A stretch of 64,000 bases of DNA from an uncultured cyanobacterium (GTDB lineage Bacteria > Cyanobacteriota > Cyanobacteriia > Cyanobacteriales > CAWCAG01), in the NCBI GenBank assembly GCA_963803805.1, contig CAWDOD010000002.1, positions 864,001 through 928,000 on the forward strand, given 5' to 3'. A program made the position numbers and the translations under genes. A model generated the notes under the pieces. That model was not told where the DNA came from and made no database searches. It worked only from the letters and a program-made list of their open reading frames with translations. Position 1 is the first letter of the stretch; the number at the start of each line of letters is the position of its first letter. This document shows positions 33,279-55,991 of this stretch, one piece after another.

Positions 33279-34017
33279 TTAATCTGGAGGTTGATCCGGT
33301 TGGTAGTTGACAGTTTGTAGTTGTTCTTCTAGCCACTTTTGCCAACATTCTTGGAGCAACTTCTGTTTCATCTTCTCATCTAATTGGGCAGGAACAAATT
33401 CTTCTAAACGAACAATTACATACCAATCATTAAGACGACTAGGAGGCCAAAGCTGCCCTGGTTTGCTAACACTAAGCATTCGCCCTAAGTCGGTATGGAT
33501 ATTGCTTAAGGGGACAGGGCCTACTTTACCACCTGTTTTTGCTTCTGCCCCTTGGGAATATTGTTGAGCTAGTTCTGTAAAAGAGGCTTCTTTTTCCAAA
33601 AGACGGCAATAAAGTTCTTGGGCCATACCCACATCTTTAGTTCTTAACAAAGAGTATATTACCTGATCAAAGTAAGCTTTACGTTTCAAAAAAATGCTTT
33701 CAAGTTTGCTGCCCCAAGTTTGCTCTTGAAATTTAGCAATTTTCCAACTTCGTGTTAGCTTTTTCTTGTAATTGTTGGGGACTTAAACCTTTTTGTTCTA
33801 ACCAAGTTTGTCTTTCTTGAGGGCTATAAAGTTTTTGTTGTTGATAAAATTTCTCACAATTTTGCGCCTCTTCTTCAACAGAACAGACTACATCTTTAAT
33901 AGCTAAGTCGGTAATAATTTCTCGTGCTAATTCAGGCAGAAGCTGATACTTTTGTAGCAAGGGAATAATCTCCTCTGCTGTAAAGGTTTGTTCACCTATT
34001 TGTAGAACAGTAGTCAT
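33279..34017 (-). CDS. Parvulin-type peptidyl-prolyl isomerase (~245 aa), split by a +1 frameshift at 33760-33764
   Basis: Removing one T joins ...QLQEK to LTRSWKIAKFQEQTWGSKLESIFLKRK...; SFTELAQQYSQGAEAKTGGKVGP rotamase motif; typical partner of cyanobacterial T1SS genes. Confidence 0.85.
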
Positions 34018-34062: not shown

Positions 34063-34187
34063 TAAGCTGTCAGGCATTTAATTTACTTATTAGGTTTGAT
34101 GGGAAATAAGGGGATAGGGAGATGGGGGAGGGTTTTAGGGCTTATTTCCTAGTTGAGTAATACACAGTTTAAATGCACATCAGCTTA
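34063..34187. mobile_element. MITE-like element in the PPIase/T1SS leader
   Basis: taagctgtcaggcatttaaa ... tttaaatgcacatcagctta inverted ends (16/20), with TA at both termini. Confidence 0.55.
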
Positions 34188-34193
34188 ACAGCT

Positions 34194-34249
34194 TATTTAC
34201 TTATCTACTAAAAACAAGTTTTTTTTGCAAAAAGTACAGAAAACTTTTT
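34194..34249 (-). promoter_or_regulatory. Island motif copy 1, upstream of PPIase-hlyB-hlyD
   Basis: + strand tatttacttatctactaaaaacaagttttttttgcaaaaagtacagaaaacttttt, colinear with copies 2 and 3. Confidence 0.75.
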
Positions 34250-34313
34250 CTGTAGGGAATTTAGGTGATTTTAACAATTTTTAAAATCCTGGTTTTAGAA
34301 ACTTGCTTGAGTG

Positions 34314-34355
34314 GGCGATCGCATTTTCTATTTTATTGATGAAGATGCGATCGCC
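34314..34355 (-). terminator. HIP1-containing hairpin downstream of the RTX gene
   Basis: ggcgatcgcattttc...gaagatgcgatcgcc just after the stop at 34368. Confidence 0.55.
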
Positions 34356-34367
34356 TCTTAACTCAAC

Positions 34368-37300
34368 TTAGACGTTAGTGAAGCTTTCACTAGTTAGGGT
34401 GTCAGCTTGGAAATTTGTCAACGAGGCTAACAATTCACCTGTATTTACAAAACTGATAAATGCGTCCTTTTCTGAGGAACCACTTCCTTGACTAAAGGAA
34501 AGTTCTTGGAACTTCAAGCCTCCAGATAAACCGAAAATATCAGTACCAACTTGGAAGTCGAGGATAGTGTCCATACCTTGATTTCTAGCCATAATAAAGG
34601 TATCTTTGCCTTCTCCCCCTTCTAGGGTATCCTGACCGAAACCACCATTAATCAGGTCGTCTTCTTCTCCCCCGTAGAGGAAGTCATCACCAGATTGTCC
34701 TAGCAAGACATCATCATCCTCACCCCCATACAGAAAGTCGTTACCCGTGCCACCGTCTAGGTTATCACGTCCGTCTCCCCCATCAAGGATGTCGTCGCCG
34801 TCAGCACCGGAAAGTTCGTCGTGACCAGCATTTCCTTCCAAATTATCTGCACCAGAGCGACCAAGTAGAATATCGGCATCATCTCCTCCTTTGAGGATAT
34901 CATCACCTGCACCACCATCAAGGAAGTCCTTGCCTTTGTCACCAAACAACTCGTCGTTGCCTGCACCACCGAGTAGGATGTCTTTTCCGGAACCACCGTC
35001 AAGGATGTCGTTACCTATACCACCATCAAGGTTATCATAGTCATTACCTCCGTAGAGTTTGTCATCACCCGTGCCACCAATGAGGGTATCATCATCGTTG
35101 CCACCCTCAAGGGTATCATTGCCAGAACCACCATCAAGGTTGTCTTCACCACTACCACCGATGAGTTGATCATTCCCTGCACCACCGATGAGAATATCAT
35201 CCTCGTTGCCGCCATTTAGGGTATCATCCCCAGAGCCACCATCAAGGTTGTCTTCACCATTACCACCGATAAGTTGATCATTCCCTGCACCACCGTCAAG
35301 GTTGTCATCATTAGACCCCCCATCAAGGATGTCATTGCCTGCCCCACCGATGAGTTCATCCCGGCCTGTAGCCCCTTCAAGGAGGTCATTACCAGCACCA
35401 CCATCAAGGAAGTCATCACCATAACCACCATCAAGGAAGTCATCCCCAGCTTGACCGTAGAGGGTATCATCACCATCTTCACCTTTAAGTAGATCATTGC
35501 CACGACCACCATCTAGGGTATCATCTTCAGTTCCTCCGTAGAGAGAATCATCTCCGGCATCACCAAATAGTTGGTCATCATCATCGTTACCATAAAGGGT
35601 GTCATCTCCGTAGCCACCATCTAGCTCATCTTCTCCTTCCCCTCCAGAAAGGTCATCGTTGCCGTTGCCACCTTCGAGGTCATCATCCCCTTCAAAGCCT
35701 TGGAGGGTATCGTTGCCGTCACCCCCTTGAAGGGTATCGTTCCCATCACCACCATAGAGTAGGTCATTGTCATCTCCTCCACAAAGATGGTCGTCTCCTT
35801 CACCCCCTCTGAGTTCATCGTCTCCCTCTTGTCCCAGGAGGATGTCATCCCCTTGATCTCCAACGAGGATATCCTTGCCTTCGCCACCAGCGAGGGTGTC
35901 GTCCCCTCCTCTACCAAAAATCTCATCATTGCCACCAACACCAATCAGGAGATTATCTTGCCCATCACCTATAATTTTGTCGCTTTTCTCGGAACCAATA
36001 ACGTTCTCGATATCTCTGAGGATGTCATGATCTCCGTAACCATCGGTGGCAATTTGTTGGGCGAGATTAACATCAACGCTGCCGTTATCCCACTGGTAAC
36101 TAACAGTATCAATTCCTGCCCCTCCTTCAATGAGATCATTACCACCATGACCAGCGATGAAGTCGTCACCATCTAGGGTACGAATCCAGTTATCTTTGCC
36201 ATTCCCCATCATGACATCATCTTGATTGGAGGCTACGATGTCTTCAATGTTAACCAGGGTGTCGCTAGCATCCATTTCATCATAAACTTCACCAGGATCT
36301 AGGGCAAATCTTGGTTCAGGGTGGGGAACTTCAATATCACAGTCGTTGTCACAATATTCTTGGTCGTGGTATTCGTAGCTGTTGTCGTCATCAAGGTTGA
36401 TGCGGACTCCTACAGTTGAGGTGGCGAAGGTAACTTGGTCAACCCCTTCTCCACCGTCAATGAAGTCGCTGCCATCTCCTCCATCAAGGAAGTCGTCACC
36501 ATCGCCCCCATAAAGTTCGTCATCTCCTGCACCACCAATAAGGGAGTCATCTCCTTCTCCGGCATCAAGGATATCATCACCATTGCCACCATCAAGGGAG
36601 TCGTTACCTTCGCCCCCATAAAGTTCATCGTCCCCATCATCGCCGGCCATGGTATCGTTGCCTGCACCTCCTGAGAGAACATCATCTCCTGCACCTGCGG
36701 CAATATTGTCATCCCCTGCACCGCCATCAAGGTAGTCGCTACCGTCGCCACCGTTAATTTCGTCGTCGCCAGCGCCACCTTCTGCTACATCGTCTCCTGC
36801 CCCAGCATCAAGGATGTCGTTTCCTGAACCCCCTTCAAGGTAGTCATCACCAGTTCCTGCGTCGAGGTTATCGTTGCCAGCGCCACCATCAAGAATATCG
36901 TCGCCTTCACCAGCATCTAAGGTATCGTTACCATCGCCACCGAACAGTTCGTCATTTCCTTGGGCAGCATCAAGGTTATCATTGCCTGCGCCGCCGTAGA
37001 GGTAGTCATTTCCTTCTCTACCAAACAGTTGGTCATCGTCGTTACCGCCATCAAGGTAGTCGCTGCCGGTATCCCCATCGAGGTAGTCTTGACCATCTGA
37101 ACCAAGGAGGGTGTCGTTGCCAGCTTCACCAAAGATTTGGTCGTCTCCAGCGCCGCCGTCGAGGGTATCTTCACCTTCACGACCGTAAATTAAGTCAATA
37201 CCGTCGCCGCCATCAGCAAAGTCGTTGCCTGCGCCAGCGTCAATGAAATCTTCTCCGGCAGAACCAAAAAGGTTATCATGTCCGATTTCACCATAAATCT

Positions 37301-40300
37301 CGTCGTCACCAGCGCCACCGTCTATGGTATCATCACCAGCGCGACCGTAAATTAGGTCAGCATCATCACCGCCATCAACGTTATCATTGCCGATTCCTGC
37401 ATCGATATAGTCTTCACCACCGGAACCAAGAATGGTATCGTCATCTTCTTCGCCGTAGATTTCATCGTCACCAGCGCCACCGTCTATGGTATCATCACCA
37501 GCGCGACCGTAAATTAGGTCAGCATCATCACCGCCATCAACGTTATCATTGCCGATTCCTGCATCGATATAGTCTTCACCACCGGAACCAAGAATGGTAT
37601 CGTCATCTTCTTCGCCGTAGATTTCATCGTTACCAGCGCCACCGTCTATGGTGTCGTTGCCAGCGCGACCGTAAATTAGGTCAGCATCATCACCGCCATC
37701 AACGTTATCATTGCCGATTCCTGCATCGATATAGTCTTCACCACCGGAACCAAGAATGGTATCGTCATCTTCTTCGCCGTAGATTTCATCGTTACCAGCC
37801 CCGCCGTCTATGGTGTCGTTGCCAGCGCGACCGTAAATTAGGTCAGCATCATCACCGCCATCAACGTTATCATTGCCGATTCCTGCATCGATATAGTCTT
37901 CACCACCGGAACCAAGAATGGTATCGTCATCTTCTTCGCCGTAGATTTCATCGTTACCAGCCCCGCCGTCTATGGTGTCGTTGCCAGTACGACCATAAAT
38001 CAAGTCAGTGCCATCACCACCATTAGCAATGTCGTCGCCCGTACCAGCATCAATGTTATCATCGCCAAGCCCTCCATTAATTTCGTCATCGCCATCGTTA
38101 CCATAAAGTTTGTCATTTTCTGAACCACCATCTATAAAATCGTTACCAGCATTACCTTCAATGAAGTCTTCACCAGATTCTCCATAGATAGTGTCATCAT
38201 CATCTTGACCATAAATGGAGTCGTTTCCTGTCCCTCCCCAGATAGAGTCTTTTCCTGCGCCACCTTCTAGGATATCGTTGCCTGCATCACCATAAATTTC
38301 ATCGTTGCCAAAACCGCTATCTCCTTTAACCCAGTCATCGCCACCACCAGAGTGGATTTCATCATCTCCATCACCACCGCGAATAATATCTGCATCTCCA
38401 TTAACAGCATCGCCAACGAAGTCTCCCCAAATGGTGTCATTGCCATAGTTACCGAATAGCTTATCTTGTCCGCTACCTCCGATAACTTTGTCATCACCGC
38501 GTTCACCATAAAGCATATCGTCACCACCTTCGCCGGAAATGTAGTCATTTCCCATGCCTGCGGTGATGATATTGAGGTTGTTGTCTCCGACAATCGTGTC
38601 GCCCAAATCAGAACCAACTACATTCTCGAAATCGAAGATTTGATCATGGTCATGGTTAGCGAGGAAGTTATTATCTGCTTGGCTAAAGTCAAAGGGTAAC
38701 TTGCCTTGGAAGCCTTTAACAGTAAGATTGGCTTCTAAGCTGACGTGGACTGGACGCGCTGTATCGCTGTAGCTGAGGGTGTCAAGACCGAATCCAGCGT
38801 AGAGGTTATCCGTACCAGCACTACCGACAACTACATCATCTCCTCCTAATGCCCAAATGTAGTTGTTTTTATTGTTGCCAATAAGAATGTCATCAGTGAA
38901 ACCTTTAGTACCGTAATCTCCAAATTGAACTATGGGCTGGAAATTCCAATCTGTTCCCTTGATAGATTCTAGGTTTTCTAAGATATCAACAGTACCAAAG
39001 CCATCATAGGCGGTTCCAGAGGCGATTTCATAGTTAGGTTCTAGGTCAAAGAAGTATTCTTCAGGGTTTTCTGGACTGACTTCTTGATTAAATAGCAGGT
39101 TGCGATTGTGTTCAAAGAGGTTATTTTCATTAATGTTGACGATGACGGTGTTAGGGGAGAAGCTGTAGTCAACGGTGTCTCCTTGAGTTCCTCCATTTAT
39201 GTAGTCGTTGCCAAGTCCGCCGTCGAACCAATCAAATCCTCCATTACCAAACAGAGTGTCGTTGCCTGTCCCTCCAGCTAGAGTGTCGTCGTTAGCACCA
39301 CCACTCATGTAGTCGTTGCCAGAACCACCGGAGAGATAGTCGTTACCAGCGTCTCCATACATGGTGTCGTTGCCTTCTTGTCCGTAGAGAGTGTCTCCAT
39401 TGTCACCACCGTGTAAGGTGTCAGCGCCAATTCCACCGTATAAGGTGTCTGTGCCAGCGTCGCCCCACAGTTCATCGTTTCCTTCTTGTCCGTAAAGAGT
39501 ATCTCCGTCATCGCCACCGTGTAGTGTGTCTATGCCGAGTCCTCCTTCTAAGGTATCAATACCAGCGTCGCCCCACAGTTCATCGTTTCCTTCTTGTCCG
39601 TAAAGGGAGTCTCCATCGTCTCCACCATGTAGGATATCTTCGCCAAGTCCACCTTCTAGAGTATCAACACCAGCGTCACCCCAGAGTTCATCATTACCGT
39701 TGTTTCCATACAAGGTATCGTTTTCAGAACCACCATGAAGTTCGTCTTCTCCATCTCCGCCGTGTAGTTCGTCAATACCTTCATCACCCCAGAGTTGATC
39801 GTTGCCTTCTTGTCCGTAAAGGAAGTCTCCATCATCTCCGCCATGTAAGGTGTCTTCGCCGAGTCCACCTTCTAGAGTGTCAGTGCCAGCACCGCCTTCT
39901 AATGTGTCATCTCCTCTACGACCATACAAGTTATCATTACCAGAGCCTCCACGGAAAGTGTCATTGTAACTTCCTCCATACATTTCGTCGTCATAAGAAG
40001 AGCCTTCTATAATCTCAACGTTACCGACTGTATCTAATGTGCCGAAACCGTCTTCAATACGATAAACATCAGAGCCTGCATATTCTTCAGCACTTACTTT
40101 AATAGGGCTATTGCTGCTTGAGTAATCCGCAGTATCTTGTCCCTTTCCTCCATCTAGCAAGTCGTAACCTTCTCCACCAATTAAGGTATCGTTACCACCT
40201 TTGCCTCTGAGGACATCATTTCTTGCAAATCCCCCTATTCTGTCATTTCCAGAAGTACCTTCAATCCAATCATCATTTTGTGTACCTGCTACATTAGATT

Positions 40301-41909
40301 GATTTTGGATTTTGTCTTCTGAAAAATAGTATCCTGTCTTATTTAATTCATTAAAAGATTGAAGAAAATATTGCTGGGCTTCTTCTCCCCATGTAGGCAA
40401 ATAGCTATCTACAAATTTGTGTTCATCCAACCCATTTTGTAAAGTAGCAATTCCAGTATTGACTAAATTTGATAGTTTAGAGAATAAATTATTGTCACTT
40501 AACTGCAACTTAGTAACCGGATCATTATTATTGATAATATTTAAGCCATCTCCCAAATTTTGATAATATGTATCAGGTGAAACCATTGATAATCCTGCTG
40601 CTGTGTAAGAAGTAGGAGAACCAAAAGAAATAACTTTTGTTTGATTTTGATATTGAGAGCCTTCGATCAAAGCATCTTCAAGAAAAAAGTTTCCTTGAGA
40701 ATGTCCTATCAAAATCAAAGAATTTTGTGAATCATTATTTCCTAAAAATTGGGAGTCTATGATTTGATTGTATAAATCTAAACTAGGAGAAACTGGATCT
40801 GTAAACCAGTATTGTATAAGTGCTTCTTTTAAATCAAAACTATCGGGTAAAGCTTGAATGATAGAATTAATTTCACCCCCTAATTGTCCGGCGATAAAAT
40901 TAATTAAATCAGCAGTAAATTGATCGTCTTCTAAAAGACTAAAACTCGGATTTTGCCAAAACTGCCATACTATATTTGCAAAATCTCCTATTTGATCTAT
41001 CAAATCTATAAGTTCAATACTACCTAAAATTTTATCAAGTAAATAGCTACCTATAAATTCTAAAATCAATTCATCCAAATTTTCCAAAGAAGAAAGATTA
41101 TAAACAGGCTTTGAAATTAAAGAACCATCATCATTAGCAAAAAGGTTATTGTTAATCACAAAATTTTCTTCTGCTTTTGGCACAAAATCACCATAAAAGG
41201 ATAATGAAGTTGTGAATATACCATTAATAAGAACAACTTGGGTTTTGCTTGAATCCTTTAAAACTTTGTTCCAAACTTTCTCAAAATTAAAATCTAGCTC
41301 GTTATTATTTACTATTCCTGCTTGTTCAATATTAAATGTGCTGCTATGTACCTGGATGATTCCAGAATCGTTTTCAGATTGCAAAACCTCAACTTGAGAC
41401 TCTCTCAAATCAACACCTTGCACCACATTGGAAAAATATTCCCCCTCATCTCCCGGAGTATCCACCACATTCACTTGAGCATCAACATAATGCCCAAACT
41501 CCTCCAACAACACACCATTAATCGCCTCAACATCACCAGCAGACTCACGCAAGAAATCCTCAGCCAAATAAATAGTATTAGTCGCTGCTGCATAAGCCGC
41601 ATTCGCCCCACTCAACTCCGCACTACTGAGAATCTCGAAACTAGGAAAAGACTCAAACTCACCAGAAACAAACGACTCTTTTAACTGGCTATAATCATTC
41701 CCCTCCCCAAAAACAGACTCCATCTTGCTAACAAACTCAGCATCAGTCGCAAAACTCTGCAAACTCAAACTAAACTGTTCCAGAAAACTTTCAGCCACAT
41801 CCGTACTCTCAAAAAAGTCGCCAACAACTTCTAGCAAATCGTCAAAAGAATCCTTATTTGACCAATCTTCCAAACCAAAAACTTGAGACTCGGTATTAAG
41901 CAAATCCAT
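34368..41909 (-). CDS. Giant Ca-binding RTX protein with N-terminal EExGH domain and alpha/beta-hydrolase (lipase-like) domain
   Basis: Very many GGxGxDxLx nonapeptides; LILIGHSQG nucleophile elbow; VLLEEFGH; T1SS-type C-terminus (DTILDFQVGTD); adjacent to the T1SS genes. Confidence 0.9.
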   Translation of the reverse strand: MDLLNTESQVFGLEDWSNKDSFDDLLEVVGDFFESTDVAESFLEQFSLSLQSFATDAEFVSKMESVFGEGNDYSQLKESFVSGEFESFPSFEILSSAELSGANAAYAAATNTIYLAEDFLRESAGDVEAINGVLLEEFGHYVDAQVNVVDTPGDEGEYFSNVVQGVDLRESQVEVLQSENDSGIIQVHSSTFNIEQAGIVNNNELDFNFEKVWNKVLKDSSKTQVVLINGIFTTSLSFYGDFVPKAEENFVINNNLFANDDGSLISKPVYNLSSLENLDELILEFIGSYLLDKILGSIELIDLIDQIGDFANIVWQFWQNPSFSLLEDDQFTADLINFIAGQLGGEINSIIQALPDSFDLKEALIQYWFTDPVSPSLDLYNQIIDSQFLGNNDSQNSLILIGHSQGNFFLEDALIEGSQYQNQTKVISFGSPTSYTAAGLSMVSPDTYYQNLGDGLNIINNNDPVTKLQLSDNNLFSKLSNLVNTGIATLQNGLDEHKFVDSYLPTWGEEAQQYFLQSFNELNKTGYYFSEDKIQNQSNVAGTQNDDWIEGTSGNDRIGGFARNDVLRGKGGNDTLIGGEGYDLLDGGKGQDTADYSSSNSPIKVSAEEYAGSDVYRIEDGFGTLDTVGNVEIIEGSSYDDEMYGGSYNDTFRGGSGNDNLYGRRGDDTLEGGAGTDTLEGGLGEDTLHGGDDGDFLYGQEGNDQLWGDEGIDELHGGDGEDELHGGSENDTLYGNNGNDELWGDAGVDTLEGGLGEDILHGGDDGDSLYGQEGNDELWGDAGIDTLEGGLGIDTLHGGDDGDTLYGQEGNDELWGDAGTDTLYGGIGADTLHGGDNGDTLYGQEGNDTMYGDAGNDYLSGGSGNDYMSGGANDDTLAGGTGNDTLFGNGGFDWFDGGLGNDYINGGTQGDTVDYSFSPNTVIVNINENNLFEHNRNLLFNQEVSPENPEEYFFDLEPNYEIASGTAYDGFGTVDILENLESIKGTDWNFQPIVQFGDYGTKGFTDDILIGNNKNNYIWALGGDDVVVGSAGTDNLYAGFGLDTLSYSDTARPVHVSLEANLTVKGFQGKLPFDFSQADNNFLANHDHDQIFDFENVVGSDLGDTIVGDNNLNIITAGMGNDYISGEGGDDMLYGERGDDKVIGGSGQDKLFGNYGNDTIWGDFVGDAVNGDADIIRGGDGDDEIHSGGGDDWVKGDSGFGNDEIYGDAGNDILEGGAGKDSIWGGTGNDSIYGQDDDDTIYGESGEDFIEGNAGNDFIDGGSENDKLYGNDGDDEINGGLGDDNIDAGTGDDIANGGDGTDLIYGRTGNDTIDGGAGNDEIYGEEDDDTILGSGGEDYIDAGIGNDNVDGGDDADLIYGRAGNDTIDGGAGNDEIYGEEDDDTILGSGGEDYIDAGIGNDNVDGGDDADLIYGRAGNDTIDGGAGNDEIYGEEDDDTILGSGGEDYIDAGIGNDNVDGGDDADLIYGRAGDDTIDGGAGDDEIYGEEDDDTILGSGGEDYIDAGIGNDNVDGGDDADLIYGRAGDDTIDGGAGDDEIYGEIGHDNLFGSAGEDFIDAGAGNDFADGGDGIDLIYGREGEDTLDGGAGDDQIFGEAGNDTLLGSDGQDYLDGDTGSDYLDGGNDDDQLFGREGNDYLYGGAGNDNLDAAQGNDELFGGDGNDTLDAGEGDDILDGGAGNDNLDAGTGDDYLEGGSGNDILDAGAGDDVAEGGAGDDEINGGDGSDYLDGGAGDDNIAAGAGDDVLSGGAGNDTMAGDDGDDELYGGEGNDSLDGGNGDDILDAGEGDDSLIGGAGDDELYGGDGDDFLDGGDGSDFIDGGEGVDQVTFATSTVGVRINLDDDNSYEYHDQEYCDNDCDIEVPHPEPRFALDPGEVYDEMDASDTLVNIEDIVASNQDDVMMGNGKDNWIRTLDGDDFIAGHGGNDLIEGGAGIDTVSYQWDNGSVDVNLAQQIATDGYGDHDILRDIENVIGSEKSDKIIGDGQDNLLIGVGGNDEIFGRGGDDTLAGGEGKDILVGDQGDDILLGQEGDDELRGGEGDDHLCGGDDNDLLYGGDGNDTLQGGDGNDTLQGFEGDDDLEGGNGNDDLSGGEGEDELDGGYGDDTLYGNDDDDQLFGDAGDDSLYGGTEDDTLDGGRGNDLLKGEDGDDTLYGQAGDDFLDGGYGDDFLDGGAGNDLLEGATGRDELIGGAGNDILDGGSNDDNLDGGAGNDQLIGGNGEDNLDGGSGDDTLNGGNEDDILIGGAGNDQLIGGSGEDNLDGGSGNDTLEGGNDDDTLIGGTGDDKLYGGNDYDNLDGGIGNDILDGGSGKDILLGGAGNDELFGDKGKDFLDGGAGDDILKGGDDADILLGRSGADNLEGNAGHDELSGADGDDILDGGDGRDNLDGGTGNDFLYGGEDDDVLLGQSGDDFLYGGEEDDLINGGFGQDTLEGGEGKDTFIMARNQGMDTILDFQVGTDIFGLSGGLKFQELSFSQGSGSSEKDAFISFVNTGELLASLTNFQADTLTSESFTNV
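37310..37985 (-). repeat. Four near-identical 162-bp (54 aa) RTX blocks
   Basis: gtatcgtcatcttcttcgccgtag at 37435, 37597, 37759 and 37921. Confidence 0.9.
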
Positions 41910-42300
41910 AAATCAATTCCCCTGGTTAGAATAGAAAAAATAAACAAACATCGCCAAAGTGAAACCCTGCCATAAACTCCAGAAATCAGAGATACGGTTA
42001 GCCACTGTGAAAAAACTGACTTACTCAAAAAGAGCGATTCAGAACTCTCACTAAAGTCTTCTCAGGGAAAAACACTCGATATTATGCAGCGAGACAATTT
42101 TTATTACAAAACTTCACAAAACCCATCAGGGACACTGAAATAAAACTGTAATTGGTTTGAAATTCTCTGTTAAGGAGGATGATACTATTTTTCAAAAATA
42201 GCTTCAGCCTTGCTCAAGTAATTATCACTATTTTCGTCAACAACAAAGCTCTTTTCTCTTCAACTAAAATACGGTTGCAAAAACTTCCCACCAGTCTCCC

Positions 42301-47421: not shown

Positions 47422-47471
47422 ATTTCTAACTTTCACTGGTAGATACCTTTCCAAAAATAAACTATGAATTT

Positions 47472-48551
47472 CTAGCGAAACTCCTCATCAAGTTGCTGCA
47501 ATTGCACCTTCAAACTTGCTACTTTTTCTAAATCACCCAATACTTCGTAACCTTCTTTAGCCGCCGTTAAATTTTGATGTGCCTTTTCTGAATCATCAAG
47601 GGAAATATAAACTTGCCCTAAACTATCTTGAATAGCTGCTTTGGCTTCAAGATTATCTGCATTAACTAACTCTAAAGCTTGCTTGTAATATACTTCTGCT
47701 TGGGGAACCAATAACTGTTCCAAGAAATATAAATCACCAAGCTGTTGATAAAGTGCTGCCGTTTGCACCTTGTTGATGACAGACTCTTCCAACAGTAACA
47801 AAGCTTCACTCTGCAAACCATATTCTAAATAAACATTAGCGATCGCGATGCCCTTACCCACATCATCCAATGATCCTTGCTGAATTTCGGCTTCTGCTGC
47901 ACGAAGTTGCTGCACCTCTGCTTCATCAAGAAGTTTAATTAAAGGGGACAGGTAAAACTCCCCCGTATCTGCTATCACAGTAATCAAATACTCCTTACCA
48001 GATTGTAGGGATTGTTCTCCTGCATAAACTACTTGAGTCTGACTAACTTCAGTTTGCCAAACAACCTGCCCACCCTCCTCCACGGTAACTGTGTAACTAT
48101 TCGCCCCCGGCACTTCTTGCCAGCGTAAACTTGGTTGAGCATTGAGTAATTTAGTATACCGAGGACTAATCAAATAAGGGGTTGGTTGTTGCTCCCAAGG
48201 AACTACTTTATCACCACGTCTAGGACAACGCTTCAACCCAGAAGTGCATTTATCCTCTGCTGCCACCTCCCCACAGTTATTAGCTTGACTAGTTTGAATA
48301 GATTGCAAAGTTAAATCAGCACATTGCACCACCACCTTGCTATTATTGAGGGAGATTAACTCATCCCCTGGATAAAGAAAAGTACCAATAGTCGCATTGA
48401 AAGTTTCTCTCGACTCCCTTTTGAGATGCACCTGACCAGCTAAGGAAATAATTTGCCCATTAGCAACAGAGTTAGAAACAGCATCTAAAGGCATTGCCAA
48501 GGTAGTAGTTAAGCCCAAACCAAGTAGATAAATAGTACCTTGAAACTTCAC
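47472..48551 (-). CDS. Exported protein with FecR-like N-domain, Cys linker, Ig/DUF928-like middle and TPR C-terminus
   Basis: Signal peptide; GQVHLKR...[10 protein letters not shown]...[16 protein letters not shown]...[15 protein letters not shown]-like helices. Confidence 0.65.
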
Positions 48552-48602
48552 AAGTCAATCTCCTCAACTAGCAGTTTGCTCTACAACTCTCAATCCGGTT
48601 AG

Positions 48603-48626
48603 AGCAAGGTGACTTAACCCCTTGCT
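48603..48626. repeat. REP-like palindrome
   Basis: agcaaggtgacttaaccccttgct imperfect inverted repeat. Confidence 0.4.
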
Positions 48627-48704
48627 AATTAGACTTTAGTCTTAACTCAACAAACAAAGAAATGCTTGTTGCTAATTGTACCTTGAGAACACCAAAATCG
48701 ATAA

Positions 48705-51464
48705 TTAAACCAAGAGAGAATCTGGAGCAACAGTGTTGATTTCCAAGTTAGTAACTCGAAAACGTTCACCATCTCCAGAAGAGAAAGAAACAGCATCAAA
48801 ACTCCTACCCAAACTGCCACCTAAGTCAGCCGCACCCATATAAAACTGCTCTTCTGTAAGATCATCAATCATGGCTGTTTGCACCTTAGTAAATGTGTTA
48901 CCCTGCTGTGACCAAAAATCTATCAGTACATCGGCTTGAGCATCAGCATTATCATTTGTAGCCTTGACAGCAAAGGAAACTCCTGTAGTCCCTAGGAGAG
49001 GATCTTTGAGGTCAAAAAACAGCATTTCATTAGCATTAATATCCTTCCCACCGCTAGTTGCTCCCTCATCACCCCCAAAACCTTCATCTTTACCGATACC
49101 ATTGCGATCTATACCAAATTCTAAATCAAAGCCGTCTGATTCCAGGGTAATCTTTTGAGAAATAAGTACTTTCTCATTATTATCAGGATCAAAAGCTTCC
49201 ATCTCCCCACTCTCAAAGTCAAAGCTAAATTGATTAGGGCTTCCTGCACCTTGCTTAAACTTAAAACCCTGGTAGTCAATCAAATCTTCCAGATCACCAG
49301 GAGAATTAGCAAGGTTGCTTTCCGGAATCTCAAAACCATAATCACGATTCTGATTAATTATCCCACCAGAATCATCTTTTTGATCAGTTAGTTGACGGCG
49401 TGCTTTTGAGCCATTACCATTATCAGCACCATTAAGTTGCCCACGATGTAATTCAGATTCCAATTCGATAGTACCACCATTGATAAGCTCAACTCTGGGG
49501 GTAGAAAATTCCAGATGAGAGTTAGCAACATCATCGTTAATGATTGTACCCATGCCTTGAGAATCGGCAAAGCTGACATTCCGACTATTTACTTGCAGGT
49601 TAGATAGGTTAACAAAGAATGTTTCATCTAGTTCTACTTTCAGATCCCCATTGATAGTAACTGGAATAGTTATAGTTTCACCGTTGACATCAACTGGAAT
49701 AGTTGGCGCTATTTGAATGTTACCAAAGTTGCTAACATAGTCAGCATCACCAATAGTTGCTGTGCCATCAACCGTCTCAAAATCGAGAAAAATATCCGTA
49801 TCAACAGGCTGATCCAGGGTTAAAGTGAAGTTGGCAATGGTACTGCTGCTATCCCCTTCCACGACGGTTACATCGTTAATAGATATTGTCGCATCATCAT
49901 CATTAATAATCTCCCCCACACCTTGAGAGTCAACAATAATTGCTCCTCCGGTTGGGTTGGATAAGTTGGCAAAGAAGCTTTCATTCAACTCCACAATATT
50001 ATCAGTTGTGATTGGCACTAATACCTCTTGACTAGTAACTCCTGGTGCAAAGTTTACCGGCCCAAATACGCTATTATAGTCCTGACCTGCAATAGCAGTG
50101 TTATCTGCTGTGGCAAAGTCCACAGTGTGAGTGATGTTACTTACCCGATCCATTGAGACAATAAATTTAGCAAAGTTGGAACCCCCTGTCCCCTCAATAA
50201 CCGGAGCATTGCTAATGGAAAATTCAGGGTTGTCATCATTAAGAATCCTACCAATTCCTTGAGTATCAGCAAAGGTTACAACACGCCCACTTGCTTGAAT
50301 TTCAAGTAGGTTGACGAAAAAATTCTCATCTATTTCTACCTTGCTGTCACCATTGATAGCAACTGAAATAGCCTCTGTTGTTTTAACACTACCAGACTTG
50401 CTAACATAGTCAGCATCAGCAACAGTTGCTGTTCCGTCAGCAGTCTCAAACTTAACAAAAACATCAGTATCAATAGGATTATCAACGCTTAAATTAAAGT
50501 TAGCTAAACTGTTTCCGCTATTCCCTTCCACAACAGTTACATCGTTAATAGATATTGTCGCATCATCATCATTAACAATGATTGCACGACCTTGAGGATC
50601 ACCAATAGTTGCTCCTCCAGTTGGGTTAAATAGATTAAGGTAAAAATCTTCAGTCAACTCAACTATATTATCGGTTACTATTGGAAGCGATACATTTTGA
50701 CTGGTAACTCCTGGTAAAAAGGTTAATGTCCCTGCTCCTCCTCCATAGTCTTCCCCAGCAATAGCAGTACCATTTGCTGTGGCAAAGCTTACAGTGTGGG
50801 TGAGTTCACTTGCCCGATTCATTGAAATAGTGAAATTAGCAAAGTTGGAACCTCCTGTTCCCTCAACAACAACAACATCGTTGATGAAAAATTGAGGTGC
50901 ATCTTGTCGTGTCAATTCTAACTGAAACGCACCCATTTTCTGATTTATAGGGCCGCTAGGAATACGATTACCGCTATTAATCTCGGTCGCATCGTACTTT
51001 CCATTCCCTTGGGCTGTAACACCGATGAAAAATGTATTAGTGCTTGGGGCTTGAAACAACAGTGTAGGATCTGCTGAGATGATTCCACTTTCAGGATCAA
51101 TACCATCGTCAGCAACTTTTAACTCTTTACCATTTGCGTTAAAAACGCGAATCATACTATCCAAATTGGAACGCTGCTTGAGACCAAAGTTATTTGGATT
51201 AAGAATTGCTCCCTTGCCATCATTATCTCGCGCATCAACATCAATGAGGAGAAATTCCCCTTGTTTTAGCTTAACCCCAAAAAGATCCACATCACTACCA
51301 TCTCTGGCAACATTGTTACCAATCATCTCTGTTGAATGAAACGGAGTCTGTAAGTAGTCTATGGGGCTAGTTAATTCAACTTTAACTCCAATGTCTAGCT
51401 CATTTCTTTTAACGATGTCTGCTAAACCGATTTTATCAGCTTCATTAATCCTTACTCTTGCCAT
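48705..51464 (-). CDS. Calx-beta repeat protein (4 repeats) with N-terminal PPC-like domain
   Basis: ISINDVTVVEG...GTA...DY...DNIVELxE.F...I.NDD four times; DVDLF/LDSMIRVF PPC-like segment; AGGAG RBS. Confidence 0.85.
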   Translation of the reverse strand: MARVRINEADKIGLADIVKRNELDIGVKVELTSPIDYLQTPFHSTEMIGNNVARDGSDVDLFGVKLKQGEFLLIDVDARDNDGKGAILNPNNFGLKQRSNLDSMIRVFNANGKELKVADDGIDPESGIISADPTLLFQAPSTNTFFIGVTAQGNGKYDATEINSGNRIPSGPINQKMGAFQLELTRQDAPQFFINDVVVVEGTGGSNFANFTISMNRASELTHTVSFATANGTAIAGEDYGGGAGTLTFLPGVTSQNVSLPIVTDNIVELTEDFYLNLFNPTGGATIGDPQGRAIIVNDDDATISINDVTVVEGNSGNSLANFNLSVDNPIDTDVFVKFETADGTATVADADYVSKSGSVKTTEAISVAINGDSKVEIDENFFVNLLEIQASGRVVTFADTQGIGRILNDDNPEFSISNAPVIEGTGGSNFAKFIVSMDRVSNITHTVDFATADNTAIAGQDYNSVFGPVNFAPGVTSQEVLVPITTDNIVELNESFFANLSNPTGGAIIVDSQGVGEIINDDDATISINDVTVVEGDSSSTIANFTLTLDQPVDTDIFLDFETVDGTATIGDADYVSNFGNIQIAPTIPVDVNGETITIPVTINGDLKVELDETFFVNLSNLQVNSRNVSFADSQGMGTIINDDVANSHLEFSTPRVELINGGTIELESELHRGQLNGADNGNGSKARRQLTDQKDDSGGIINQNRDYGFEIPESNLANSPGDLEDLIDYQGFKFKQGAGSPNQFSFDFESGEMEAFDPDNNEKVLISQKITLESDGFDLEFGIDRNGIGKDEGFGGDEGATSGGKDINANEMLFFDLKDPLLGTTGVSFAVKATNDNADAQADVLIDFWSQQGNTFTKVQTAMIDDLTEEQFYMGAADLGGSLGRSFDAVSFSSGDGERFRVTNLEINTVAPDSLLV

Positions 51465-51525
51465 GAGCTTCTCCTTGAAAGTTTTTATACTAAATTGCAG
51501 CTAGCAACACGTTTATTTAGCTTGC

Positions 51526-51581
51526 TATTTACTTATCTGCTAGAAAAAAACTTTTTTTGCAAAAAGCCCAGAGAAATTTTT
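51526..51581 (-). promoter_or_regulatory. Island motif copy 2, upstream of the Calx-beta gene
   Basis: + strand tatttacttatctgctagaaaaaaactttttttgcaaaaagcccagagaaattttt. Confidence 0.75.
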
Positions 51582-51646
51582 CAGATTCCCCAAAAATAGA
51601 GCTAATCTGCGAATATCAAGATTTATAAAGAATGGGTAAAAACTAT

Positions 51647-53458
51647 TTAATTACTATGGTTTAGTCTTTGCCAAGCCTTTTCAATACATTCTTCTTCTTC
51701 AGGAACACTTGATTTGGAGTATTGCCAAGTTTTTCGCCATGCTTTCATCGCTTCTGCATTCCTATCTTTCGCCTCTAAAGCCTGTGCCAATAAACAATAA
51801 GCATGGGGGCTTTTTTCTTCTAAAGCTATTGCTTTCTCCAAATCAACCAAAGCCTCATCTACACGCCCCTTTTGCCAACGTACCCAGGCACGATTTTTTA
51901 AACAGGAAGTTTTAACACTATCGTATTTAGTTTGGTTTAAACATTGCTCAACCGCCTTAAGAGCAGCTTCTGGATTGTTCTTTTTTATGTACAAACTGGC
52001 TACATCTGCAAAAGCTTCCGGTGATCCTCGCAAAGCTGCTTTTTGATAAGCTTCGACAGTGCAGTCTAAATCATCTAAAACATCATCGCAAAGTACCGCT
52101 AAATTGTAGTGAGGGGTAGCATAATTCAAGTCTAGTAAAGTTGCTAAACCATAGAAACCCTGTGCTAAAAAGTATTGTCCTTGATTATCTTTTTCTAAGC
52201 CAATATTATTCATTTGCCTAGCTAACTTAGAACCAAAAAACAAATAGCTAACAAATAAAGCTAAACTAGTTAATGTTACGAATTTGGTTATTCTTTTACC
52301 TATACCCAACCAAACTCTCTCTCTAGATTCTATTGCTGAATCAGACTGACTTGCATTACCCCATTCTTGCCAACTAGGAGGAGTAATAGCTGGATGCTGA
52401 CAAATAACTGGTAGCCAACTAGCCCCAGGGAAGTAATGTTCCAACCCTTTCAGTTGCTCCCTGGCTTGCCTCACTGCAACGTAAAAAGGTTCTCCATCAG
52501 CAAAGGCTCGGAAGAAGTACTGCAAAAAAGCAGGGGCGACAGGATCAGGAACCGGTTCCCGCATGACAATAATTGGTGGTAAAGGAACTTTGGCTTTTGC
52601 TAACTGCCGTGGTAAACCTAAACCATCACAGGAGTTGAAAATAGCTAGCTGCAAACCTTTGCTCACAGAGATATGCAATGCTTCTTGCAACTCAGCAATG
52701 GTTATACTATTATGGTCAGGAAGTTGATTGATAAAGAGGTTCCCTGTGGTGGCATTGGCATTGCTAGAACTATGACCTGCAAAAAATAAAAAATCCCAAC
52801 CTTGTTCCCAAAGTTGGGCTGTCAATTCATCTCTTTCTGGTTCAAATAATAGCTTTAGTTCTACTCCTGGTAGTTTCTTGAGTAACTGCAAATCCTCCTG
52901 AAGATTGATACCGTTGCTATTACCAAAAATAGCGAGGATTTTTATTTTTGCCCCCAATTTTTTGTTAATTAAAGGAGGTGGTGCAGGATATTCTGGTGTG
53001 CTGAGGGCTATTTCTGCATAGCGATAGTCTTCTTTAACTAGTTTCCATAATGACCAAGGTAATCGCCACACTTGCTCATCATCACTTTCAATGATTATTT
53101 GTATAGCTTGGTAGGGGGCTAACTGAGTCCTCAGTTGCTGCTCAATTTCGCGAAAGCCCTCGCTACCCAGCCAGTTGTTAATTTGTGTAGCTAAGTTTTC
53201 TCCTATAGTTTGGAACTCAACTTCTGAAACCTGGGTGATGCCCTCTGGTTTGATTTCAATGTCAGCCCTAGTTGTATTTTGATACAAAGCCAGATAAAGC
53301 AATTGCCAACGCCCATACAATTCAGGTAAATGGCGGGCTGGAGGTAAACTTCCTCTCAACTGCATGGTGAGATTCCCTGGTTTTCCTAACCTTGCTGTTA
53401 CCTGGGGAAAACCATCATCAAAGTTTCCTGATTCTAGATTTAAAACTACTAAATTCAT
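51647..53458 (-). CDS. CHAT (clan CD) protease - TM helix - TPR protein
   Basis: LFFAGHS and AIFNSCDGLG His/Cys dyad, IVMREPVPD, TM FVTLTSLALFVSYLFF, C-terminal TPRs. Confidence 0.88.
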   Translation of the reverse strand: MNLVVLNLESGNFDDGFPQVTARLGKPGNLTMQLRGSLPPARHLPELYGRWQLLYLALYQNTTRADIEIKPEGITQVSEVEFQTIGENLATQINNWLGSEGFREIEQQLRTQLAPYQAIQIIIESDDEQVWRLPWSLWKLVKEDYRYAEIALSTPEYPAPPPLINKKLGAKIKILAIFGNSNGINLQEDLQLLKKLPGVELKLLFEPERDELTAQLWEQGWDFLFFAGHSSSNANATTGNLFINQLPDHNSITIAELQEALHISVSKGLQLAIFNSCDGLGLPRQLAKAKVPLPPIIVMREPVPDPVAPAFLQYFFRAFADGEPFYVAVRQAREQLKGLEHYFPGASWLPVICQHPAITPPSWQEWGNASQSDSAIESRERVWLGIGKRITKFVTLTSLALFVSYLFFGSKLARQMNNIGLEKDNQGQYFLAQGFYGLATLLDLNYATPHYNLAVLCDDVLDDLDCTVEAYQKAALRGSPEAFADVASLYIKKNNPEAALKAVEQCLNQTKYDSVKTSCLKNRAWVRWQKGRVDEALVDLEKAIALEEKSPHAYCLLAQALEAKDRNAEAMKAWRKTWQYSKSSVPEEEECIEKAWQRLNHSN

Positions 53459-53624
53459 AATTGCTAAATCATACTAAATCAGGTTTGGTTGCACAAATTA
53501 TTTGTGGGGGTAGGGAGTAGGGAGTAGGCAGCAAGAGGAGTGAAACTTTATTGCTCGGATTCTACAATTAAGGTTTAATAACCGGATTTCGTATCATAGG
53601 TAAAAACAGGAAATAGTTGTTTAA

Positions 53625-54752
53625 TTAACCAAGTTCTTGAAAAGAAAAAGATTCACAGACACAAACATCATCAAGAGCTACCTGTATTTTAAATATAGTA
53701 ACAGGACTCACATAAAAAAGTCGAAGTTGAATATACAAATCTTGACCTCTAGAAACAACTTCTTGTAGTATTTCTTCGGTTTCAGATAACAGAATGAGTT
53801 TCATTTGTGGATATAAGTAGCGATCGCCCGAAGCGGGATGAAGCTGTACAATAATACTAATTCTTTGTTCAGATTCATGGGTTACTCCTACTAACAAAGT
53901 AGCTGCGCGATCATCTAGTTGAACCCCAAGATCAATTAGTTTAGCCCGCTTAACATCAGCTTTGGGTAAAAATTGAGGATTAATTTGTGCTGCTTTTCTG
54001 AAAGTACTATTAAGGGGAGAAGGAGCTTTAATAGAGCCTCGAAATTGCCTACTTGGCTGCGGAGTATTAAGTCTTGCTTCTAAGGTTTGCCAACCATTAC
54101 TGAAAATGTTCTTAAACCAATTTCCTACATTAACTACAGTACTTGTGGGAGGAGATTTCAAGTTCTTTGGCTTAGGTGTAGGAGTCAAAATTGCTTCTAC
54201 ATCTTGCCACTCACTATTAAAACTATTAACCAACCACTGGTTAAGGCTAACGGCAGATTTACCAAGACTTTGCAGGTGTCTCAGGAGAGAATCTAGGGGT
54301 TTTAATTGATTAATAACTAGTGTCCCTTCTTCAGCAGTGGGAGAAAAACCTAGCAACAAGGCTCTTTTAGCTTCCTCATCAATTCCTACTACTACATAAC
54401 CCAGACGAGCTTCTCGTGCTTCTAAAGGCACTGGACAACTGTTAGGTAAGTTATCTAAAGTAATCCTCACAGGACGACATTCTAGTTTCCCCAGCCCTTT
54501 AACTGCTAAATCTGCTACATCTTCGCACATATGCAGTACCGGATTCCAACTATCACCCTTTTCTAATTCAGTATCTATTTGCAAAAGTTGGAGATAATTG
54601 TTTACTACCCAAACTGCCAAGGTATTCAAGTAAATCCGTTCTCCCTGAGAAGCATGAGGTTGGGCAGCAGCAAAGCGTTTTGCGAAAGCGAAACCTGCAC
54701 TATCAATGGGCAGAGGTAAGTATTCTTGGTGAGCATCAATGGAACTATTCAT
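53625..54752 (-). CDS. DUF1822-family protein
   Basis: IYLNTLAVWVVNNYL, ADL...GKLECRPV, GYVVV, LLGF, AKLIDLG, YIQL. Start probably MNSSID at 54752. Confidence 0.85.
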   Translation of the reverse strand: MNSSIDAHQEYLPLPIDSAGFAFAKRFAAAQPHASQGERIYLNTLAVWVVNNYLQLLQIDTELEKGDSWNPVLHMCEDVADLAVKGLGKLECRPVRITLDNLPNSCPVPLEAREARLGYVVVGIDEEAKRALLLGFSPTAEEGTLVINQLKPLDSLLRHLQSLGKSAVSLNQWLVNSFNSEWQDVEAILTPTPKPKNLKSPPTSTVVNVGNWFKNIFSNGWQTLEARLNTPQPSRQFRGSIKAPSPLNSTFRKAAQINPQFLPKADVKRAKLIDLGVQLDDRAATLLVGVTHESEQRISIIVQLHPASGDRYLYPQMKLILLSETEEILQEVVSRGQDLYIQLRLFYVSPVTIFKIQVALDDVCVCESFSFQELG

Positions 54753-54775
54753 AACTTCACTTCCTAATAAATCTT

Positions 54776-55570
54776 TCAAATATATGCTTGAGACTTTGCA
54801 AATTGGCGTAAACGAGGACGGCATTGACGTTTATAAAAACTGTAGAGAGTTGACAAAGGGCAATTTAGTTCTGCGGCTAATTCTTCCCAACCTGTTTCTG
54901 GAGGTAGGCGGCGCAGAATCACCTTTTGGCAAGTAATATCTGGGCGTTTTTTCATGTGAGTACTGGTTAAGTCTCCATCAGGATCACTTCCTACCCAATT
55001 CCTAGTTTCTTCAAGAATAGGAGGTATTTCTTGGGGAGCTTCTGTAAAAGGTTCTGGATCATTGCTTTTTAATTGTTGGTAAAGTTGTCTATCTCTTTGC
55101 TTCTCGGTACGAAAATCTAGAAGTCGATATTTGAGATAGTTATTAAGCCAAGTAATTACAGAACTTCTGGCAGGATTATAAGGTTGACAACTGTTTCCTT
55201 CACAAAGGTTACGAACAAGATATAGCCAAGTTTGCTGTAAAGCATCCTCATAATAAAGAGCATTTTCTCGCCACAATCTCCCAGAATTGACGATGACTCT
55301 AATTAAGTGGTTGAGATATCTTTTTCGTTCCCAACTATCAGCAGGATATTGGCAGCTTTGGGCGACAAGTTGCTTGATTTGCTCTTCTTGTACCATTTTG
55401 GTGCAACACCTGAGTTGGGCTTTGCCTACAGGACTATTTCTCAAGGCTGTCCCTAATCTTCTGGAGTTGCTACCTTTTAAAGCAGAGTTTAGTTGATCAA
55501 GAAGGTTCTCCCCAGGAGAATAGCCATTTTCTCTTAGGTTACGAAAACTTACCCAGCTAGTAACATTCAT
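54776..55570 (-). CDS. Divergent sigma-70 (ECF-like) factor
   Basis: Region-2-like YEDALQQTWL and ITWLNNYL; region-4-like HTH WEELAAELNCPLSTLYSF. Start is 55570 or 55396 (MVQEEQ). Confidence 0.75.
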   Translation of the reverse strand: MNVTSWVSFRNLRENGYSPGENLLDQLNSALKGSNSRRLGTALRNSPVGKAQLRCCTKMVQEEQIKQLVAQSCQYPADSWERKRYLNHLIRVIVNSGRLWRENALYYEDALQQTWLYLVRNLCEGNSCQPYNPARSSVITWLNNYLKYRLLDFRTEKQRDRQLYQQLKSNDPEPFTEAPQEIPPILEETRNWVGSDPDGDLTSTHMKKRPDITCQKVILRRLPPETGWEELAAELNCPLSTLYSFYKRQCRPRLRQFAKSQAYI

Positions 55571-55610
55571 GATTAATTTTGCTCAGAATCTAGATATGTG
55601 TTTGCCTTGC

Positions 55611-55666
55611 TATTTACTTATCTGCGAGAAAGAAACTTTTTTTGCAAAAACCTCAGAGAAATTTAT
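55611..55666 (-). promoter_or_regulatory. Island motif copy 3, upstream of the sigma-like gene
   Basis: + strand tatttacttatctgcgagaaagaaactttttttgcaaaaacctcagagaaatttat. Confidence 0.75.
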
Positions 55667-55991
55667 CTCATTGAATTAATATTGTTTAAGTAGCAGTATA
55701 GGAAAAAAGTACTAGATAGATTTAGTACTTTAGTTGCATGAAATTTAGTCATATAGATCCTGTTCGGTGAAGATGCAGGTTCCTTAACATTTAATTAGGT
55801 GGGTCATAAGTTTCATTTCAATCCTGGGATTGTGAACAAAGATATACCTAAAATCAAACGCGATCGCACACATTAGTCATCTAAACTAGCGGTAAAAAGC
55901 ATCCAGTATCTCAAAACTCTACTCTGTCAAAAGAAATATAGCCAAAAGTGGCATAGCTGTTTGACATCCAACCAATTCTCCAAGGTTAACA

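Follow-up and report, generated by a model that had tools for sequence, protein, structure and literature searches.

Three copies of an AT-rich box as probable promoters of a divergent ECF-like sigma factor in a cyanobacterial gene island

A gene island in an uncultured cyanobacterium carries three copies of a long bipartite motif, each placed before a gene or operon on the minus strand, and one of the genes so preceded encodes a divergent relative of sigma factors of the extracytoplasmic function (ECF) type. Do these copies represent promoters that the sigma factor itself reads, and if so, what would it turn on? The island lies in a stretch of 64,000 nucleotides, referred to here as the window, which corresponds to positions 864001 to 928000 of contig 2 in a genome of 11 contigs and 5,306,316 bases. 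On the basis of sequence comparisons, we conclude that the three boxes probably serve as cognate promoters for the ECF-like sigma factor that the island itself encodes. We denote them copy A, before a peptidyl-prolyl isomerase (PPIase)-HlyB-HlyD unit; copy B, before a Calx-beta repeat protein gene; and copy C, before the sigma-like gene (Table 1).

The pattern TATTTACTTATC-N20-TGCAAAAA matched the window three times, at plus-strand starts 34194, 51526, and 55611, each with 0 mismatches where up to 3 were allowed. The count expected in the window is 0.01, and 0 of 100 shuffles contained three matches. All three copies carry the trailing N3-CAGA. Across the whole genome and both strands, the window's copies are the sole sites with 0 to 2 mismatches over the 20 specified bases; the runners-up are two sites with 3 mismatches each. 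The initial annotation of this locus had reported three gap-free copies in one orientation, intergenic and ahead of minus-strand units, and each part of that description holds for all three. It had also considered a dispersed repeat as the finding that would count against its proposal; the 5.3-Mb genome contains 3 copies, all in one island, and a genome of the same genus contains 1, which speaks against such a repeat.

On the minus strand, a block of ~65 nt is common to all copies: an A/T tract comes first, then TCTG-N3, then TTTTTGCAAAAAAA, and after a T-rich spacer the block has GATAAGTAAATA. Similarity extends from ~48 nt upstream to ~17 nt downstream of the G in GATAAG, and outside these limits the copies are unrelated, with 2 to 5 identities per 10 bases. 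Each copy is directed toward the next minus-strand gene. As a promoter, the box would comprise the A/T tract, a -35-like GCAAAAA, a spacer that measures 16 nt when hexamers are counted as in ECF promoters, and a -10-like GATAAG; when CAAAAA (CGAAAA in the family) is counted as the -35 hexamer, 16 nt follow and then GATA. The consensus of Bacillus subtilis SigW promoters, TGAAAC-N16-CGTA, exemplifies this classical ECF geometry. The sequence TTTTTGCAAAAA forms a perfect 12-bp palindrome in all three copies; this feature is lineage-specific, the family core GCGAAAA not being palindromic. No sigma70-type hexamer pair (TTGACA-16-18-TATAAT-like) overlaps any of the three boxes; the lone pair found, at 34073 to 34044, lies downstream of copy A. 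Rfam gave 0 matches at the gathering score in the whole window, and a simple scan identified no terminator-like sites near the boxes. Between the RTX stop codon and copy A, at 34300 to 34345 on the minus strand, there is an inverted repeat of two GCGATCGC (HIP1-type) sites, which the terminator scan does not call, a T run being absent after the repeat.

The last base of GATAAGTAAATA is 40 nt from the ATG of the sigma-like gene (55570) in copy C, 61 nt from that of the Calx-beta gene (51464) in copy B, and 176 nt from that of the first open reading frame (ORF) of the PPIase-HlyB-HlyD unit (34017) in copy A. The long distance in copy A is due to a leader insertion of ~120 nt that is missing at that spot in the same-genus genome; minus the insertion, copy A would be ~60 nt from the ATG, resembling B and C. 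Each of the congeneric genomes has its own ~120-nt insertion in this leader, at different points (window 34066 to 34185; L092 715 to 839). The window's insert looks like a small mobile repeat, with many short matches elsewhere in the same-genus genome.

Conservation of the box was examined in the best 80 of 474 related loci, all of them cyanobacterial, which encode sigma relatives at 45 to 59% identity. The window's exact words do not occur in these 80 loci, and TTTGCA and ATAAGT proved uninformative upstream of the orthologues. The box emerged from within-locus repeats upstream of the sigma gene in several loci, which align with the window copies in a single register: GC(G/A)AAAA, 16 to 17 nt, GATAA(C/G). 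The form found in other genera is GCGAAAA-N16-GATAAC, and the window variant is GCAAAAA/GATAAG. Only these cores are conserved across genera, and not the whole of TTTTTGCA and GATAAGTAAATA, as the initial annotation had it. The pattern GC[AG]AAA-N16-18-GATAA occurred 40 times in the 80 loci, compared with 1 to 9 times across 20 shuffles. Twenty-eight of the 40 sites, from 25 loci, lie on the sigma strand 40 to 700 nt upstream of the sigma gene; the spacer is exactly 17 in every one of these, though 16 to 18 were permitted, while the remaining 12 sites are mixed. An upstream AAAATTTTT-like tract accompanies the 26 unique foreign sites and is present in the window copies too.

We built a 54-nt matrix from these 26 foreign sites only, excluding the window copies, and set its threshold at the 99.999th percentile of 1.15 million shuffled positions (shuffled maximum, 12.0). 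Matches on the sigma strand, 40 to 800 nt upstream of the sigma gene, were found in 38 of the 80 loci; the upstream score was at least 12 in 30 loci, 7 of which are non-seed. When the matrix was applied to the window's own genome, the three window copies ranked 1 to 3 (22.9, 19.4, and 18.5), so the matrix check proposed in the initial annotation, across the genome and upstream of sigma orthologues, came out in favor of the box. The next matches (contig 7, 23936 and 27595; contig 2, 195798 and 199095) were rejected as promoters because they lie inside paralogous histidine-kinase coding sequence or run antisense inside WD40 genes. When metagenome contigs were scanned for the exact pattern, there were 4 matches, on low-GC contigs (30 to 36% GC) with no sigma homologue by tblastn, and these were taken as chance.

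The distribution of the box follows the phylogeny of the sigma factors. A quick IQ-TREE analysis was run on 80 rows, comprising 78 loci, the window's sigma factor, and a paralogue encoded on contig 9 of the same genome; L039 and L061 were removed by a length filter. A clade of 30 rows (support of 91 in the Shimodaira-Hasegawa-like approximate likelihood ratio test) contains 26 of the 30 loci with a strong motif, its other rows being one weak locus, one without a box, the window's sigma factor, and the contig 9 paralogue. The window's protein is sister (support, 92) to those of L006 and L009, whose -10 region, GATAAGTAAGTAAATAG, is near the window's GATAAGTAAATAG; taken individually, their -10 regions, CTGATAAGTAAGTAAATAG and CTGATAAGTAAGTAGATAT, are the closest to the window's CAGATAAGTAAATAG. 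A second clade, of 36 rows, is without an upstream box in every row. Two metagenome-assembled genomes hold one locus of each type, with and without the box (L007/L045 and L004/L029), and the box therefore tracks the sigma lineage and not the organism. This agreement between box and clade supports recognition by the sigma factor, although it is not proof, as kin share features.

Similar boxes also precede candidate target genes in other loci. In L056, a box scoring at least 12 stands before a PPIase-HlyB-HlyD operon, the PPIase of which begins MTTVLQIGN..., like that of the window, and in L069 three tandem boxes precede a PPC-domain gene followed by PPIase-HlyB-HlyD; these are the 2 loci with a strong box before the full operon. 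Homologues of the window's PPIase, HlyB, and HlyD are each found in 4 of the 80 loci, the four differing by gene. Boxes scoring at least 12 were also found in L070, before genes for an RTX protein and a PPC-domain protein; in L008, before the gene of a Laminin_G_3 protein; in L037, before a fragment related to lanthionine synthetases in their N-terminal portion; and in L060 and L079, before HTH_32 protein genes, whose products may be transposase-related. In L076, such a box precedes a gene for a 115-aa peptide (9172 to 9519, minus strand) with a conserved leader-like segment ending in GGGG and then a Gly-rich core and tail; it has no family match, and we take it to resemble the double-glycine leader (NHLP-type) precursors that are cargo of C39-peptidase ABC pumps. 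The link to type I secretion system (T1SS) and surface-protein expression suggested in the initial annotation thus gains support from the PPIase/T1SS, RTX, and secreted-protein genes that lie behind similar boxes elsewhere.

The identity of the putative reader, a 264-aa protein (P0001), was approached through its relatives, 590 of which were found at E values of 1e-3 or below; for several of these, the NCBI name is "sigma-70 family RNA polymerase sigma factor." A family profile matched 941 cluster representatives at the same cutoff among 1.84 billion representatives. In a domain-scanned set of 74 members, comprising P0001 and 73 more distant relatives listed at E values of 8e-53 to 2e-28, Sigma70_r2 of Pfam was matched by 20 members (best E value, 7.3e-11), Sigma70_r4_2 by 2, and Sigma70_r4 by 2. 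The 74-member profile retrieved the ECF sigma factors SigE (PDB 2q1z; E value, 5.5e-6) and SigK (4nqw; 1.2e-4) from the PDB; a narrower alignment gave SigK alone, at 0.3, so that the wider alignment was required. An AlphaFold2 model of P0001 (predicted local distance difference test [pLDDT] score, 80) has two helical domains. In VIA alignments, residues 62 to 164 superposed on region 2 of SigW (Z, 7.3; root mean square deviation, 2.8; 88 residues), SigC (83 of 89 residues), SigK, and sigmaE, with Z values of 6.4 to 7.3, and residues 181 to 264 superposed on region 4 of SigR (64 of 65 residues), SigL, and sigma-H, with Z values of 6.2 to 6.9; all of these are below 8, a range where helical matches can be generic. 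Residues 1 to 57 form a low-confidence N-terminal extension common only to P0001 and its two closest relatives, P0002 and P0003. Most family members begin at approximately residue 58, and the true start codon of P0001 may therefore be internal. We conclude that P0001 is a very divergent sigma-70 family member, probably with the ECF-like two-domain (sigma2 plus sigma4) build; the homology of region 2 is solid, through intermediates in the family, and the support for region 4 is thinner.

Two genes accompany the sigma gene with some regularity. A DUF1822 gene lies directly downstream on the same strand in 67 of the 80 loci, and a homologue of the CHAT-TPR gene is present in 62 of the 80. Complex predictions for residues 58 to 264 of the sigma factor with DUF1822, each with its own alignment, gave scores of 0.83, 0.84, and 0.83, against 0.00 for the highest-scoring of 3 controls. 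Among solved complexes, 116 of 157 reach the mark applied to such predictions; among mismatched pairs, 2 of 215 do so. The runs agreed in at least 81% of contacts, and the pLDDT of the partner was 68 to 70. In the predicted interface, residues 33 to 185 of DUF1822 touch both sigma2 (77 to 119) and sigma4 (182 to 264). Anti-sigma domains hold ECF sigma factors by contacting these same two domains. The model thus supports binding of DUF1822 to the sigma factor, without showing it. DUF1822 itself is modeled as an alpha/beta N-terminal domain, a disordered stretch at ~193 to 287, and a C-terminal beta-sandwich, with no TPR; a fold search returned only generic beta-sandwich matches (E values of at least 1.5e-3), with no anti-sigma fold among them.

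These observations suggest how the island might work. DUF1822 would keep the sigma factor inactive by clamping sigma2 and sigma4, and the CHAT protease, upon some signal, would lift this hold; the proteolytic step is pure inference. The freed sigma factor would then bind core RNA polymerase and fire the three promoters: copy C for self-activation of the sigma-DUF1822-CHAT/TPR operon, a positive feedback; copy B for the Calx-beta gene and probably also the TPR and TPS-CHAT genes behind it; and copy A for the PPIase-HlyB-HlyD export operon. Surface or secreted proteins would in this way be switched on along with their export pump, in a circuit both closed and private. A more far-reaching possibility, which we put forward tentatively and regard as somewhat doubtful, is that DUF1822 represents a new cytoplasmic class of anti-sigma factor that clamps sigma2 and sigma4 and is cut or displaced by CHAT, perhaps at its disordered linker of ~95 residues. 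Such a device, which would be widespread among cyanobacteria, would convert caspase-type proteolysis directly into a private transcription program for giant surface proteins, TPS-CHAT included, and their T1SS-type exporter.

Two further loci bear on this proposal. The same-genus genome (G001) keeps one perfect copy of the box (matrix score, 25.5) before an intact 230-aa PPIase gene, followed by HlyB and HlyD. Elsewhere, it contains a 1.5-kb mosaic (L093, G001:C9:17556-19051) of five end-to-end pieces of the TPS-CHAT, TPR, and Calx-beta genes at 81 to 98% identity, apparently what is left of the island after heavy deletion; a homologue of the RTX gene (86%) and the T1SS operon (80 to 89%) sit away from this remnant. 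Recent decay of the island, leaving an orphan promoter, is the simplest reading of these sequences. The second locus is in the window's own genome, where contig 9 (38339 to 47709, minus strand) holds a second, complete cassette of sigma (53% identity), DUF1822, CHAT-TPR, TPR, and TPS-CHAT genes.

Several findings weigh against recognition of the three boxes by the island's sigma factor. P0001 itself has no match in Pfam at E values up to 10 and none in NCBIfam at E values up to 1, and the structural scores are modest, both in the VIA alignments and in Foldseek, where the top matches to the model are nearly all sigma factors at weak E values of at least 0.04 (sigmaE, 1or7, 0.04). No upstream match was obtained in 42 of the 80 orthologous loci, with a matrix whose seed pattern was derived partly from the window copies, after these had been viewed. 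The spacers of copies B and C are almost identical, as are the boxes, a pattern that recent duplication of a promoter cassette fits equally well. Matches to the sigma profile in the same-genus genome have E values of at least 3e-9 only, so its copy of the box stands without a cognate sigma factor, and its exporter operon is evidently able to exist without one; for the contig 9 cassette, a search of 21 kb gave no box with a score of at least 2. Such a copy without its sigma factor, a paralogous cassette without the box, and a perfect palindrome in all three copies would suit a site that some other regulator binds, be it a transcription factor acting as a dimer or a second sigma factor, with the sigma-like gene as a target and not the reader. 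We consider this unlikely, however. The palindrome is not kept in other genera, the half-box spacer is fixed in all 28 upstream sites, the box type tracks the sigma clade even inside one metagenome-assembled genome, and a Pfam scan of the island turned up no other DNA-binding protein. Retention in the same-genus genome is expected by chance at a DNA identity of ~90%; as the surrounding DNA is 87 to 91% identical, selection cannot be read from the intact box alone.

The sigma-like protein might also bind the box as an ordinary activator or repressor, the housekeeping sigma factor staying in RNA polymerase. A protein too divergent for the Pfam sigma models could act in this way, and an activator site would be consistent with the A/T tract upstream and with the extended conservation, but copies B and C have no overlapping or adjoining sigma70-type -35/-10 pair for a housekeeping factor; the arrangement of hexamer, 16 nt, and GATA is the same as in ECF promoters such as those of SigW; and family members carry Sigma70_r2, the region for core binding and -10 recognition. 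We regard this alternative as very unlikely. A nonfunctional origin, in which the copies are recently duplicated or mobile DNA that is intergenic by chance, seems highly improbable, even though spacers as well as boxes are very similar, in B and C especially, and small repeats of ~120 nt do move in these intergenic regions. The genome has 3 copies in one island and one orientation, originally 40 to 61 nt from a start codon, and they lack terminal inverted repeats; orthologous sigma genes have this box upstream of them across cyanobacterial families, and the exact-pattern matches in the metagenome contigs, 4 only, were on unrelated contigs without a sigma gene. We accordingly favor recognition of the boxes by the island's own sigma factor, as the initial annotation had proposed in naming them a -35/-10 promoter of the divergent sigma; the boxes of orthologues, the fixed spacer, the matrix ranks, and the sigma phylogeny support this assignment at the level of sequence.

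The loci without an upstream box have features of their own. A dyad search of the 42 box-less loci returned TGCAA..GTTAC at -32, which was rejected as the coding start of Acaryochloris sigma factors, and CTCAC..CTTGT, which belongs to a block common to five Acaryochloris loci. This block, GTGATT.A.CTCACA...TCTTGTA, lies 150 to 300 nt upstream of the sigma gene in L010, L015, L016, L025, and L058, all in the box-negative clade, and may be that clade's own promoter. In five other members of the clade (L012, L049, L056, L059, and L070), box-like sites face RTX, PPC, or PPIase genes from the opposite strand; their upstream element is GTAAA-N5-GTAA, and their -10 region reads CTGA(C/T)AAGT. In this clade, the regulon may have been kept while autoregulation was not.

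Parts of this module have been described. Kaur et al. (eLife 2021), in those parts of the paper drawn on here, give a computational description of the sigma/DUF1822/CHAT-caspase (EACC2) gene neighborhood, and propose that the sigma factor regulates "a multiplicity of genes" and that the trio links caspase-like proteolysis to transcription. The trio found here is the same as theirs, with sigma-like, DUF1822, and CHAT protease genes adjacent on one strand, both in the island and in 62 to 67 of the 80 loci. The same parts of that paper give no promoter, target genes, or role for DUF1822, to which the present analysis adds a box, a candidate regulon, and a predicted clamp; our DUF1822 model, alpha/beta plus beta-sandwich, is also not TPR-like, in contrast to their account. 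The nearest studied analogue of the island circuit appears to be DdvS/DdvA of Myxococcus xanthus, an ECF sigma factor and an anti-sigma factor carrying a TPR-CHAT module, in which protease action was proposed by the authors to inactivate the anti-sigma factor (PMC6061681, portions consulted). Both systems couple an ECF-type sigma factor to a CHAT protease with TPR repeats. According to the same portions of PMC6061681, however, TPR-CHAT is the extracytoplasmic part of a membrane anti-sigma factor in DdvA, whereas the island encodes CHAT-TPR as a protein of its own, of 603 aa, with DUF1822 as the predicted sigma binder, and the target of the Myxococcus system is CRISPR4-cas, whereas the island's candidate targets are surface and export genes.

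Autoregulated ECF promoters of the SigW type offer a second comparison. They, too, are bipartite: a rigid spacer of 16 nt separates an A-rich hexamer at -35 from a short -10 element. They also lie just upstream of the sigma factor's own operon and serve a small local regulon. Unlike them, the island box is AT-rich, reads GCGAAAA/GATAAC in the family and GCAAAAA/GATAAG here, and has a conserved upstream A/T tract; its sigma factor is missed by the sigma models of Pfam, and one entire clade of the sigma family lacks the box. No account of a promoter or regulon of the sigma/DUF1822/CHAT trio turned up in a literature search. The main text of the ECF reclassification (PMC7826278) is without DUF1822, CHAT, or TPR, as is, for DUF1822, the part of one supplement consulted; its other supplements could hold such a group. 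The initial annotation did not recognize the box as a described cyanobacterial promoter; the promoter and regulon do appear to be undescribed, but the gene module had already been described by Kaur et al. The circuit is likely to be an autoregulated one of ECF type, judging from its sequences, with a previously undescribed AT-rich promoter, a noncanonical predicted anti-sigma factor, and a caspase-like partner.

The features of the island are collected in Table 1. In the CHAT plus TPR protein, the CHAT domain begins at residue 107. The TPS-CHAT gene follows so closely behind the TPR gene that it is therefore probably part of the motif B unit. The PPIase gene is interrupted by a frameshift near 33735 to 33745; it is intact as one 230-aa ORF in the same-genus genome (L092 109 to 801), and the homologue in L056 is intact also. 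The minus-strand string ends with a DUF4915 gene after HlyD. On the plus strand, a gene for an eCIS_core (DUF4157) protein of 804 aa (55992 to 58406) is divergent from the sigma gene over a gap of 421 nt, and no copy of the box is directed at it.

Table 1. Motif copies and genes of the island, with positions in the window
Feature	Position	Strand	Remarks
Motif copy C, before sigma-like gene	55605..55670	-	-35-like GCAAAAA 55645-55639; -10-like GATAAG 55622-55617; upstream A/T tract
Motif copy B, before Calx-beta gene	51520..51585	-	GCAAAAA 51560-51554; GATAAG 51537-51532
Motif copy A, before PPIase-HlyB-HlyD unit	34188..34253	-	GCAAAAA 34228-34222; GATAAG 34205-34200
Divergent ECF-like sigma factor P0001, 264 aa	54776..55570	-	sigma2 ~60-165; sigma4 ~181-264
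DUF1822 protein, 399 aa	53625..54824	-	Pfam DUF1822, E 8e-67; overlaps sigma gene by 49 nt
CHAT (caspase-like protease) + TPR protein, 603 aa	51647..53458	-	Pfam CHAT, E 3.6e-14; third gene of the trio
Calx-beta repeat protein, 919 aa	48705..51464	-	First gene downstream of motif B
TPR protein, 359 aa	47472..48551	-	Same gene string as motif B
TPS secretion domain + C-terminal CHAT protein, 1717 aa	42301..47454	-	17 nt after TPR gene
RTX repeat protein, 2513 aa	34368..41909	-	Preceded by 391-nt gap without motif copy
PPIC-type PPIase, frameshift-split into 94-aa + 136-aa ORFs	33279..34017	-	First gene downstream of motif A
HlyB-like ABC exporter, cNMP-binding + C39 peptidase domains, 987 aa	30238..33201	-	Pfam
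HlyD-family membrane fusion protein, 499 aa	28734..30233	-	Pfam

The sigma/DUF1822/CHAT trio is common in cyanobacteria, and its output had previously been without description. A defined box with only three targets in this genome would make that output readable, as an unusually clean three-promoter regulon, and reporter fusions to the 60-bp box would reveal when the switch fires; the predicted DUF1822 clamp provides a testable first step of that switch. In cyanobacterial engineering, the box would be a candidate for use as an orthogonal sigma/promoter pair. For the biology of the organism, the list of candidate targets suggests a purpose, namely, the production of Calx-beta, TPS-CHAT, and possibly RTX surface proteins together with the PPIase-HlyB-HlyD exporter.

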